Under the pieces are notes generated by a model. That model did not search any database. It was not told the origin of the DNA and saw only the letters and a program-made list of their open reading frames with translations. From the sequence record OM386663.1: DNA of 64,000 bases; one strand, written 5' to 3'. Below, piece after piece: positions 30,999-32,499 of this stretch (positions are counted from its first letter, which is position 1; the number at the start of each line of letters is the position of its first letter). Source of the DNA: Escherichia phage vB_EcoM_ESCO49. A program made the translations under genes and the position numbers.

Positions 30999-31373
30999 AT
31001 GCAAGCTAAGAGTGCAAAAGACTTTTATTGCTTCCTACAAACCTATATCAATTCCGTGCAAAATGGTGAAAGGTACAACCTTAATGATGTTATCCCAACA
31101 CCTTTGACATGGAGGCTTGATAAATGGCCTGAAGTAGAAATTACACCAACAAGCGAACAGTGTACCTACAATCCTGAAATCAATCTTCCAGACTCTGAGA
31201 ATCTATTATATCCAATGTTCCATATTGTTGGTCTTGGAAGATTTCTTATGGATATCCAGTATGTAATTGGTAAAGATTATAAGGTTAAAGGTATTGTTGT
31301 TGGTGATGTATCTCCGCATCACAAAGGTTATTTTAGACTAAACGCACATTTAGAGGCTAAAAGAAATGATTAA
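30999..31373 (+). CDS. hypothetical protein, paralogous to N-terminal domain of next gene
   Basis: 124 aa; shared motifs GERYNL/GKRYDF and FLMDIQYVIGKDY/FFMDLQYAIINDKD. Confidence 0.45.
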   Translation: MQAKSAKDFYCFLQTYINSVQNGERYNLNDVIPTPLTWRLDKWPEVEITPTSEQCTYNPEINLPDSENLLYPMFHIVGLGRFLMDIQYVIGKDYKVKGIVVGDVSPHHKGYFRLNAHLEAKRND

Positions 31374-32499
31374 AGCAAAGACTTACCCAGACTTCAAAGA
31401 GTTTGTGAATGGCTTCGTTGCAAATGTAAAGGCTGGTAAGAGATATGATTTTAGAACATATCAGGAGGCTATTTTACCGCTTACCTATAGTTCATATTGG
31501 CCTGAAGCTGATATTGCAGAAGTTGAGGAGTTTGACTACGAGCCAGACTACAAAGTTCCATTTAGTGATGAGTTGCTTTACAGCATCGGTGCTCAAATGA
31601 GGACTTCTGACTTCTTCATGGACTTACAATATGCAATTATCAATGATAAAGACGTTGATACGGTTTATTGTGAATGGTTGGCAAGAGTTAAACCATTCTC
31701 AATGCTGAATGCTAAGTTGAAGGATGCTATCAAGCCACCAGTAATCACTCAGCAGCCAACTAATCAAACAGTAAATGAAGGTGGTACACTTACCCTAAGT
31801 GTTGTTGCAACGAATGCTACTGGATATCAATGGAAAAAGGATGGTGAGGATATCACTAGTGCCACATCTGCAACCTACACCAAAGAAAGTGCAACCACTG
31901 CTGATGCTGGTTCTTATACTTGTGTTGTGTCTGGAGAGGCTGGTACAAGTGTTACCTCAGATGCGGCAACAGTCACTGTCAACGCACTGCCTGTGATTAC
32001 ACAGCAACCTTCTAGCCAGACCATCAATGAGGGTGGAAACATCAGCTTGGAAGTGACTGCAACAGGTGCAACAGGCTATCAGTGGAAGAAAGATGGTTCT
32101 GACATTCCTTCGGCTACAGAGGCCACCTATAGCAAGTCTGGTGCGCTTCCAGCAGATGCAGGTTCATATACTTGCGTTGTAACAGGTGCAGGTGGTTCTG
32201 TGGAATCTGATGCTGCAACAGTTACTGTGAACGCACTTCCAGTAATTACTCAACAGCCAACCAATCAAGAAATCACTGAAGGTGATACCTTAACGCTGAG
32301 TGTTGAGGCAACTGGTGCAACAGGTTACCAGTGGAAGAAAGGTGAGGAAGACATCCTCGATGCAACTGCTGCAACTTACACCAAAGAAGATGCAACCGCT
32401 GCTGATGCAGGAAGCTACACCTGTGTAGTTACTGGTGCAGGTGGCTCTGTAACATCTGATGCAGCAACAGTTACAGTTAACCCAGCAGGGGAGGCATAA
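31366..32499 (+). CDS. protein with N-terminal domain of unknown function and three tandem Ig-like domains
   Basis: 377 aa; three ~82 aa repeats PVITQQP...AGSYTCVV...ATVTVNAL. Confidence 0.6.
   Translation: MIKAKTYPDFKEFVNGFVANVKAGKRYDFRTYQEAILPLTYSSYWPEADIAEVEEFDYEPDYKVPFSDELLYSIGAQMRTSDFFMDLQYAIINDKDVDTVYCEWLARVKPFSMLNAKLKDAIKPPVITQQPTNQTVNEGGTLTLSVVATNATGYQWKKDGEDITSATSATYTKESATTADAGSYTCVVSGEAGTSVTSDAATVTVNALPVITQQPSSQTINEGGNISLEVTATGATGYQWKKDGSDIPSATEATYSKSGALPADAGSYTCVVTGAGGSVESDAATVTVNALPVITQQPTNQEITEGDTLTLSVEATGATGYQWKKGEEDILDATAATYTKEDATAADAGSYTCVVTGAGGSVTSDAATVTVNPAGEA
31739..32483 (+). repeat. three tandem ~246 bp coding repeats (Ig-like domain units)
   Basis: direct nucleotide and protein-level repetition inside 31366-32499. 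Confidence 0.6.

Follow-up and report, generated by a model that had tools for sequence, protein, structure and literature searches.

The closest described relatives of this locus are the decoration genes of Felix O1-like phages, for which cryo-EM has been reported in Bas63 (PMC12609058) and Sf14 (PMC11821841). In both phages, the capsid-binding domain (CapBD) of the decoration protein was located at the centers of the pentamer-proximal hexamers; the Ig domains were disordered, and no density was seen on the remaining 20 hexamers. In Sf14, Arg79 and Arg107 of the decoration protein gp20 form salt bridges with Asp221 of the major capsid protein (MCP), and gp20 was also positive by mass spectrometry (MS) (PMC11821841). 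The Felix O1 orthologue, gp36, has been found by MS in CsCl-purified virions, with 14 peptides and 44% coverage (PMC3185647). The Bas63 paper furthermore described a variable number of Ig domains within the family and a position of the gene, named Hex-Dec, >10 kb outside the structural module (PMC12609058). The 377-aa protein treated here is already known in this sense, as its structure, the variation in its number of Ig domains, and its unusual place in the genome were all published in 2025.

We analyzed a window of 64,000 nucleotides from Escherichia phage vB_EcoM_ESCO49 (OM386663.1), in which two neighboring ORFs had been described, from the letters alone, as a non-structural gene pair sharing an N-terminal domain. 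The source genome is a Felixounavirus (Felix O1-like myophage), with megablast identities of 98.8% to phage ESCO50 and 94 to 95% to many Felixounavirus genomes. The coordinates of the two ORFs were exact, and their common N-terminal domain, including the motifs quoted in the original prediction, was evident in the alignment (BLASTP, 32% identity over 101 aa, E = 4e-14). With a probability of roughly 0.85, the locus as a whole is best explained by a long gene encoding a Hoc-like decoration protein and a short gene encoding a duplicated CapBD (Table 1).

Table 1. Features of the decoration locus and of the capsid gene in the window
Feature	Position	Strand	Basis or remark
Terminator-like hairpin	30960..30987	+	GGGGCTAATGCCCC then T-rich tail; closes upstream gene
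124-aa stand-alone CapBD paralogue	30999..31373	+	ORF, BLASTP, PHROG, phmmer, AF2 and Foldseek
377-aa hexamer-center capsid decoration protein (Hex-Dec / Sf14 gp20 / Felix O1 gp36 family)	31366..32499	+	phmmer against PDB, PHROG, Pfam
CapBD, residues 1-123 of the 377-aa protein, with Arg79 and Arg107	31366..31734	+	AF2 model, Foldseek, alignment
Ig-like domain 1, residues 124-207	31735..31986	+	Pfam Ig_3 at residues 124-189; repeat register
Ig-like domain 2, residues 208-290	31987..32235	+	Pfam I-set at residues 209-283; repeat register
Ig-like domain 3, residues 291-373	32236..32484	+	Pfam Ig_2 at residues 292-371; repeat register
Endolysin (GH24 phage lysozyme), last of three-gene unit	32499..32963	+	Pfam PF00959 Phage_lysozyme, E = 6.7e-41; phrog_7
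Intrinsic terminator closing the paralogue, decoration gene, and endolysin unit	32973..33000	+	AGGCTCCTTCGGGAGCCT then TTTTATTTTC; counterpart of Felix O1 t35
MCP (binding partner), with Asp221	16096..17211	-	phmmer 9ncf_A, E = 3.2e-245; 9c2d_A, E = 7.5e-233

The 377-aa protein and its predicted contact with the capsid

In phmmer searches against the PDB, the 377-aa protein matched chain S of 9NCF (Bas63 Hex-Dec, E = 8.5e-266) and chain S of 9C2D (Sf14 gp20, E = 2.5e-168) over nearly its full length, and it matched phrog_3995 among the PHROG families (E = 1.5e-207). It is the known capsid decoration protein of Felix O1-like phages, and since the same protein has already been solved by cryo-EM in such phages, it is both ordinary and structural. 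The label "non-structural" was therefore wrong for this protein, as its orthologues Felix O1 gp36 and Sf14 gp20 are present in virions by MS and its N-terminal domain is the published CapBD, the outcome that the original prediction had itself named as refuting it. A Foldseek search with the common N-domain, which had been suggested as a check, also led to the solved capsid-binding chains 9ncf_S and 9c2d_S. An AF2 model of the CapBD aligned to 9ncf_S with a TM-score of 0.77 and was 95% identical to the modelled part. Both R79 and R107, which are invariant among Hex-Dec sequences, are present in the window protein, and the window MCP is ~97% identical to that of Bas63 and carries D221. Bas63 Hex-Dec (9NCF chain S), Sf14 gp20 (9C2D/9C3A chain S), and Felix O1 gp36 belong to the same family, with a CapBD containing the two arginines, a string of Ig domains, a position before the endolysin gene, and an MCP with D221; the 377-aa protein differs from them only in the number of its Ig domains.

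From the identities of ~95% for the CapBD and ~97% for the MCP, we infer that the window protein sits as a monomer at 60 pentamer-proximal hexamer centers. The CapBD (the N-terminal ~120 residues) would plug into the center of each pentamer-adjacent hexamer of the T=9 capsid, where Arg79 and Arg107 would pair with Asp221 of the MCP, and the three flexible Ig-like domains would point outward from the capsid. By analogy with T4 Hoc, a probable role of the Ig domains is adhesion to surfaces or mucus, or an influence on aggregation.

We found essentially nothing that speaks against a capsid decoration role for this protein. Most GenBank records name its relatives "tail protein" or "major tail protein," and its Ig domains do match PHROG families of major tail proteins. 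That it is a tail protein is nevertheless scarcely credible, given that these matches were restricted to the Ig repeats (residues ~96 to 295) and that two independent cryo-EM structures of close orthologues place the N-domain at capsid hexamer centers. The GenBank labels are legacy annotations and are contradicted by cryo-EM.

The protein works like T4 Hoc but is not a member of the Hoc family. What the two have in common is the monomer at hexamer centers, the small capsid-binding domain that carries several Ig-like domains in a row, and their non-essential nature; they differ in that Hoc is anchored by its C-terminal domain (domain 4), whereas the anchor here is N-terminal. Only the Ig region of the 377-aa protein matched Hoc-like head decoration PHROGs (phrog_2973, 1.1e-44, and phrog_4069, 2.2e-40), and no Hoc chain was found among the sequence or fold matches of the N-domain. 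The Bas63 authors described the CapBD as larger, topologically distinct, and pseudo-two-fold symmetric (PMC12609058). T5 pb10 also combines a capsid-binding domain at its N terminus with a C-terminal Ig-like domain at hexamer centers, but it has a single Ig domain. Similarity to the Ig domain of pb10 (phmmer; 5lxk_A, E = 6.2e-12, and 8zvi_a, E = 1.4e-11) was confined to residues 215 to 292 of the window protein, and sequence and fold searches gave no similarity between the two capsid-binding domains. Foldseek searches against the PDB and BFVD revealed no fold relatives of the CapBD outside Ounavirinae and, therefore, no link to the anchors of Hoc or pb10.

The CapBD family is tiny, with 13 representatives at 50% identity in an exhaustive profile search of 1.84 billion proteins. 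Word-indexed protein searches returned close relatives only, and Pfam and NCBIfam have no model for the N-domain or the paralogue. Homologous CapBDs, encoded at the same position before the lysozyme, are found in other Ounavirinae-like phages, namely in Kolesnikvirus (e.g., the BIG2-domain protein of Erwinia phage Ep030/phiEa104) and in the metagenomic P0101-P0103. In these, the C-terminal display module is swapped for a Big_2-like module or a Lys/Ser-rich tail without Ig, and there is no CapBD-only paralogue.

Ig-like repeats and gene order

Pfam recognized three stretches in the 377-aa protein (Ig_3, E = 4.6e-34; I-set, E = 4.7e-26; Ig_2, E = 5.3e-26), and DAGSYTCVV occurs three times, in agreement with the three Ig-like domains and the AGSYTCVV-type signature noted in the original prediction. 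The repeats are also tandem at the DNA level, as proposed, but the sizes needed correction: the units are 84, 83, and 83 aa instead of ~82 aa, and the spacing at the DNA level is 252 and 249 bp instead of 246 bp. Identity between copies is 65 to 72% for nucleotides and 72 to 79% for amino acids; the array was not called by Tandem Repeats Finder, and a repeat finder detected the DNA repeat at 64 to 78% identity. The repeat is real but old. There are three Ig domains here and in Sf14, four in Bas63, two in Felix O1, and one in EC6 and SP116. The two-Ig protein of Felix O1 and the three-Ig window protein are exactly one repeat unit apart, with the junction within ATGATGYQWKK, and copy number (1 to 4 among relatives) changes when the ~249-bp repeats recombine in register.

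Strand and position had been read correctly, with the structural module on the minus strand (62-22923) and the gene pair on the plus strand, directly upstream of the endolysin gene. The decoration gene was found in this place, outside the structural module, also in wV8, Felix O1, Bas63, Sf14, Silverhawkium, Mordin, and EP1, and the order of paralogue, decoration gene, and endolysin is kept in Felixounavirus, Mooglevirus, Suspvirus, and one divergent metagenomic lineage. That the gene lies apart from the structural genes is a peculiarity already known for the Ounavirinae decoration-protein family. In the window, the start of the decoration gene overlaps the stop of the paralogue by 8 nt. The hairpin upstream of the paralogue, which ends only ~11 nt before its start codon, was kept in all lineages examined and is the counterpart of Felix O1 terminator t38 and of the terminator annotated in wV8 and Mordin; in Felix O1, t38 and t35 bracket ORF37-36-35. 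A sigma-70 scan detected no promoter upstream of the gene pair, and a search with one pattern for a late-promoter motif common to the regions upstream of the paralogue gave 2 matches, a number equalled in 10 of 100 shuffles and thus not significant.

A stand-alone copy of the capsid-binding domain

The 124-aa gene, immediately upstream of the decoration gene, represents a duplication of the capsid-binding domain alone. The protein ends after the CapBD, with no Ig-like domains and no Pfam match, and its counterparts are Felix O1 ORF37, wV8 gp42, Bas63 bas63_0125, Sf14 FDI99_gp021, and phrog_4463. The PHROG families of the two proteins cross-matched, the paralogue with phrog_3995 (3e-11) and the 377-aa protein with phrog_4463 (2e-14). 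In phmmer searches against the PDB, the paralogue hit only the two solved CapBD chains (9c2d_S, 1.1e-8; 9ncf_S, 1.3e-8). These two were also the only significant Foldseek matches of its AF2 model (pLDDT 66), with a TM-score of 0.65 to both, to be read against the 0.77 that a control AF2 model of the true CapBD itself reaches.

The paralogue is under purifying selection, with dN/dS of ~0.04 to 0.19 for most pairs, all between-genus comparisons included, and it evolves ~2-fold faster than the CapBD (dN between genera of ~0.2 versus ~0.1). When the two families were compared, 30 positions were common to both and 32 were fixed but different. Both anchoring arginines are missing from the paralogue, R79 being replaced by an invariant Gly (G78) and R107 by His, Gln, or Asn. 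With their loss, capsid binding could be gone altogether or, given that a basic patch (H/Q-H-K, with K109 invariant) has been kept, may persist. The net charge of the paralogue ranges from -4 to +4 between phages, and no consistent electrostatic argument can therefore be made.

In Felix O1, ORF36 and ORF37 both peak late, alongside portal, sheath, and fiber genes. ORF37 is not in the virion MS list of Felix O1, which has proteins down to 9.7 kDa under a ≥25% coverage filter. For VpaE1 virions, absence of the paralogue was inferred from the text, which names only gp54, gp58, and gp68 beyond the Felix O1 set. Term searches of the Bas63 and Sf14 cryo-EM papers found no mention of it, nor is it modelled in either structure, although both phages encode it, and the Sf14 supplement gives no listing of non-structural gene products. 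The wV8 paper contained no virion data bearing on the paralogue, and the Gifsy-prophage resistance paper nothing on the paralogue or the decoration gene. The term "non-structural," incorrect for the 377-aa protein, may accordingly hold for its short neighbor.

In SP116, REP7, and Tf, the paralogue has become a pseudogene. In SP3_SHan-2021 it has been merged into a chimera, with the in-frame substitution of its first ~50 residues for those of the decoration protein. Natural loss in a few viable phages shows that the paralogue is dispensable.

Possible roles of the paralogue

Our best guess, put forward tentatively, is that the paralogue is a non-virion or transiently bound protein acting on the hexamer-center site during head assembly. 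For example, it may occupy or compete for these sites and thereby affect the place or time at which the decoration protein is bound. Rather unlikely is a dedicated regulator of decoration, a soluble CapBD copy that would sit transiently at hexamer centers, e.g., those of proheads or the 20 three-fold ones, thereby determine when the Ig-bearing protein binds or its 60-of-80 pattern of occupancy, and come off before or during purification. Such a regulator would be, to our knowledge, without precedent among phage-encoded proteins as a competitor or placeholder for the site of a decoration protein. Recruitment to a capsid-unrelated job (with another phage or host partner, or in endolysin or lysis timing), with the fold alone retained, is likewise improbable. 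The missing arginines, the faster evolution, the lack of reports from virions (Felix O1, and VpaE1 by inference), and the operon common to paralogue and endolysin would all fit such a job. However, the positions identical to the CapBD include surface-type polar residues (D9, R26, E47, D86, Q88, K109, and N115), the gene always adjoins and overlaps the decoration gene, and the in-frame chimera of SP3_SHan-2021 suggests that the halves are still structurally compatible. We consider it distinctly unlikely that the paralogue is a stable "bald" decoration on the 20 three-fold-axis hexamers without the Ig protein, its contact residues being adapted to a different Asp221 geometry. Exclusion of gp20 from the three-fold hexamers has been ascribed to shifted Asp221 side chains (PMC11821841), and exactly the Asp221-pairing residues are changed in the paralogue, whose model has a complete CapBD fold, whose fixed-but-different positions point to strong constraint of its own, and which is expressed late together with the decoration gene. 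Against this, neither cryo-EM study found density on the three-fold hexamers, both phages encoding the paralogue, and it is missing from the Felix O1 virion proteome, which caught proteins of 9.7 kDa, and, by inference from the text, from the VpaE1 virion proteins.

A decaying, functionless duplicate would be compatible with the pseudogenes and losses in a few viable phages, but it is very improbable and is contradicted by the selection analysis. In addition to the low dN/dS, an intact paralogue is present in ~232-252 of ~250-270 matching related genomes, conservation within its family reaches ≥95% at 77 of 127 positions, and it has been kept in a lineage only 45 to 49% identical. Programmed frameshifting, by which the overlapping ORFs would be joined at an A-rich run (AAAAGAAATGA) into one protein with two tandem CapBDs, deserves next to no credence. 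We rejected it since the offset between the two frames varies: a 1-nt difference in the A-run makes it 1 in the window and EP1, against 2 in most phages. Furthermore, the virion MS table gives Felix O1 gp36 with 31.6 kDa, the mass predicted for gp36 itself, and the first residue of the solved chains is the Met of the decoration protein.

The practical value of the long protein lies mainly in correcting the widespread "tail protein" annotation and in its use as a scaffold for display. With the paralogue, a small but genuine question is left: this copy of a capsid anchor stands alone, is conserved and expressed late, and has not been reported from capsids, and natural knock-outs for comparison exist in SP116, REP7, Tf, and the SP3_SHan-2021 chimera. 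If the paralogue binds hexamers, it would offer a handle on why the decoration protein fills only 60 of the 80 hexamers.

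Capsid decoration by the Ig-bearing protein

The region shared 98.8% identity with Escherichia phage vB_EcoM_ESCO50 and ~94 to 95% with many Felixounavirus genomes. Against the PDB, the 377-aa protein matched chain S of the Bas63 capsid (9NCF, "immunoglobulin-like domain protein"; E=8.5e-266) and of the Sf14 capsid (9C2D/9C3A; E=2.5e-168). The Bas63 protein has been named Hex-Dec; its Ig-like domains, one to four across the genus, lie C-terminal to the anchor and were unresolved, and the authors remarked that its gene lies >10 kb outside the structural module (PMC12609058). Sf14 gp20 is the same kind of protein, anchored by its N-terminal 118 residues, with Arg79 and Arg107 salt-bridged to Asp221 in three capsid subunits, and was detected by mass spectrometry (MS) in particles (PMC11821841). 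Both arginines are present in the 377-aa protein, and the window's capsid protein, ~97% identical to that of Bas63, carries D221. The Felix O1 ortholog is ORF36, beside the lysin ORF35; its product was found in CsCl-purified virions (14 peptides, 44% coverage; PMC3185647).

The Ig-bearing 377-aa protein is an already known, structurally solved capsid decoration protein. Given the near-identity to close relatives in which the mechanism is established, the domain (CapBD) at its N-terminus that binds the capsid would anchor at hexamer centers and its Ig domains would be displayed outward; by analogy with Hoc, these may have an adhesive or aggregation role. The label "tail protein", common in GenBank, is a legacy error, as the relatives solved by cryo-EM place the domain on the capsid.

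The original prediction had called both genes non-structural. For the 377-aa protein this did not hold, since its ortholog was found in purified virions by MS and its N-domain matches a capsid-binding module; for the 124-aa paralog it is possibly correct. The observation itself was confirmed, with small numerical corrections: the two proteins share an N-terminal domain (~100 residues, 32% identity, E=4e-14, with PHROG cross-matches in agreement), the longer one carries three Ig-like domains, and the pair lies directly 5' of the endolysin on the strand opposite the structural module. The tandem repeat seen in the DNA was also real, the copies being 252 and 249 bp apart rather than the proposed ~246 bp.

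Locus organization and Ig copy number

Features of the paralog/decoration locus and related loci (L-numbers denote loci of relatives, with coordinates local to each locus)
Feature	Position	Strand	Basis or remark
Structural module	62-22923	-	opposite strand to the pair
Capsid protein	16096-17211	-	
tRNA gene cluster, 19 genes	23353-27708	-	between structural module and + strand block
DUF2828/vWA "RNA-binding protein", 471 aa	27873-29288	-	adjoins tRNA cluster
DUF5681 protein	29370-29741	-	beside tRNA cluster
phrog_4034 protein, 196 aa	30361-30951	+	
Terminator-like hairpin, GC-rich with T-rich tail	30960-30987	+ strand block	11 nt 5' of paralog ATG
Paralog, 124 aa	30999-31373	+	ORF
Decoration gene, 377 aa	31366-32499	+	ORF; ATG overlaps paralog stop by 8 nt
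Ig-like domain 1	residues 124-207		Pfam Ig_3/I-set/Ig_2
Ig-like domain 2	residues 208-290		Pfam Ig_3/I-set/Ig_2
Ig-like domain 3	residues 291-373		Pfam Ig_3/I-set/Ig_2
GH24 endolysin	32499-32963	+	Pfam PF00959, E=6.7e-41
Strong intrinsic terminator, 3' of endolysin	32973-32990	+ strand block	sequence
Paralog pseudogene, SP116	L009:2305-2498		equivalent of window ~31064-31282 deleted
Paralog pseudogene, REP7	L008:2378-2571		same deletion
Paralog pseudogene, Tf	L018:1150-1343		same deletion
Chimeric gene, SP3_SHan-2021 (MW296865.1)	L019:1201-2079		replaces the pair
Single CapBD gene, Erwinia phage Ep030	L010:2836-3450		swapped display module
Single CapBD gene, PMBT37	L020:1336-1950		swapped display module
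Single CapBD gene, metagenomic	L015:4001-4462		swapped display module

The paralog, decoration and endolysin genes are tightly packed, and the GAGG Shine-Dalgarno sequence of the decoration gene sits within the 3' end of the paralog, where stop and start codons overlap. In every lineage the hairpin ended ~11 nt from the paralog ATG (window 30960-30998), leaving no room for a separate promoter, and the late expression seen in Felix O1 must therefore depend on read-through or on a promoter overlapping or preceding the hairpin. Felix O1 microarrays showed ORF36 and the paralog ORF37 peaking at 60 min, alongside the portal, sheath and fiber genes, and ORF37-36-35 are flanked by terminators t38 and t35 (PMC3185647). 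The phrog_4034 gene, for which no Pfam or NCBIfam match was found, is directly 5' of the CapBD gene(s) across the whole subfamily, separated from them by the hairpin, and keeps this position even in lineages without the paralog.

Compared to Felix O1 and VpaE1, the A-run 5' of the decoration ATG is shorter by one A in the window (31355-31373; aaaaag to aaaag), so that the paralog ends in ...KRND* instead of ...KKK* and the overlap grows from 4 to 8 nt. The frame offset of the window recurs in EP1 (Suspvirus). Fusion of the two ORFs by frameshifting was rejected because the offset varies between phages.

The Ig repeat units were 72 to 79% identical in protein and 65 to 72% in DNA; Tandem Repeats Finder did not detect the array in the window. 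Among the relatives fetched, one Ig domain was found in EC6 and SP116 (210 aa), two in Felix O1, HMD-P10, EP1 and Mordin, three in the window, wV8, Silverhawkium and Sf14, and four in Bas63 (460 aa). Exactly one unit is absent from the Felix O1 protein compared to that of the window, with the junction in the conserved ATGATGYQWKK, which fits in-register recombination between ~249-bp repeats.

Conservation, loss and recombination of the paralog

Equivalents of the paralog are Felix O1 ORF37, wV8 gp42, Bas63 bas63_0125 and Sf14 FDI99_gp021. Its sole PDB matches by sequence were the two CapBD chains of Bas63 and Sf14 (~1e-8), and its AlphaFold2 model (pLDDT 66, pTM 0.67) likewise matched these two chains alone, over the full length with TM 0.65. 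This is near the ceiling of the method, since the true CapBD of the window, modeled as a control (pLDDT 72), reached only TM 0.77 to a solved chain of 95% identity; the Sf14 authors also reported that an AlphaFold CapBD did not fit their density (PMC11821841). The order of secondary-structure elements was identical in both models.

Only 13 CapBD-bearing clusters emerged when 1.84 billion representatives were searched exhaustively by profile, and fold searches of BFVD and the PDB confined the fold to Ounavirinae. The paralog/decoration/lysozyme trio was found in Felixounavirus, Mooglevirus, Suspvirus and one divergent 87-kb metagenomic contig (paralog identity only 45 to 49%), and the paralogs formed one clade with longer branches in a neighbor-joining tree, indicating a single old duplication. 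In Kolesnikvirus and another metagenomic lineage, just one CapBD gene lies 5' of the lysozyme, with a Big_2-like domain or a Lys/Ser-rich tail fused to it in place of Ig domains and with no paralog. Some distant Ounavirinae-like phages carry the Big_2-like module, and the 153-aa P0103 has the Lys/Ser-rich tail alone, with no Ig-like domain.

Across eight phages of three genera, dN/dS was ~0.04 to 0.19 for most paralog pairs, all between-genus comparisons included, and 0.02 to 0.12 for the CapBD of the decoration protein, with ~2-fold higher non-synonymous divergence in the paralog. The paralog is a real gene. Between the window paralog and those of Felix O1 and wV8, 11% of residues differed with dS of only 0.10 (dN/dS 0.5), which may reflect a recent substitution burst or recombination in this lineage.

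The paralog was kept (at least 80% coverage) in about 232 to 252 of the ~250 to 270 related genomes matched. Three Felixounaviruses, SP116, REP7 and Tf, share a lesion (start codon lost, ~220-bp internal deletion, frameshifts) and keep the ribosome-binding site and ATG of the decoration gene along with the hairpin. The paralog is dispensable, these phages being natural knock-outs. In Salmonella phage SP3_SHan-2021, approximately the first 50 residues of the chimera are paralog-type; an in-frame junction at the WPExDI motif common to both leads into decoration-type sequence from ~residue 51, in which R79, R107 and two Ig domains are kept. The chimera is a natural recombinant of the two paralogous capsid-binding domains.

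Possible roles of the paralog

Our tentative reading (probability roughly 0.3) is that the paralog would be a placeholder or competitor while heads assemble, acting transiently and outside the virion at the hexamer-center site of the decoration protein. In favor, the anchor fold is retained in full, as are many polar residues in common with CapBD; the paralog is co-produced with the decoration protein through the codon overlap and internal GAGG, lacks both anchoring arginines (an invariant Gly stands in the position of R79, and His, Gln or Asn in that of R107) and has not been seen on mature particles. ORF37 was not among the entries of the Felix O1 virion list (PMC3185647), and the text of the VpaE1 paper, in which gp54, gp58 and gp68 are the only ones of the 22 virion proteins named as beyond the Felix O1 set, suggests that VpaE1_040, the paralog, is absent as well.

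The retained fold would also suit a bald decoration protein stably occupying the 20 three-fold hexamers, a reading that we consider improbable: both cryo-EM phages, Bas63 and Sf14, encode an intact paralog, and these hexamers showed no density in either capsid (PMC12609058, PMC11821841). The texts of both papers and the Sf14 supplement mention neither the paralog nor the duplication. Among 46 aligned sequences, 30 positions were identical in both families and 32, the R79 position among them, were fixed in each but different between them, the signature of a functionally diverged paralog and not of a decaying copy. A non-functional paralog is accordingly very improbable, its natural losses notwithstanding, and a new function unrelated to the capsid is unlikely, though less so than the bald decoration. 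The remaining novelty lies in the paralog, its natural knock-outs and the chimera, which merit a small follow-up and would be no surprise to a specialist.
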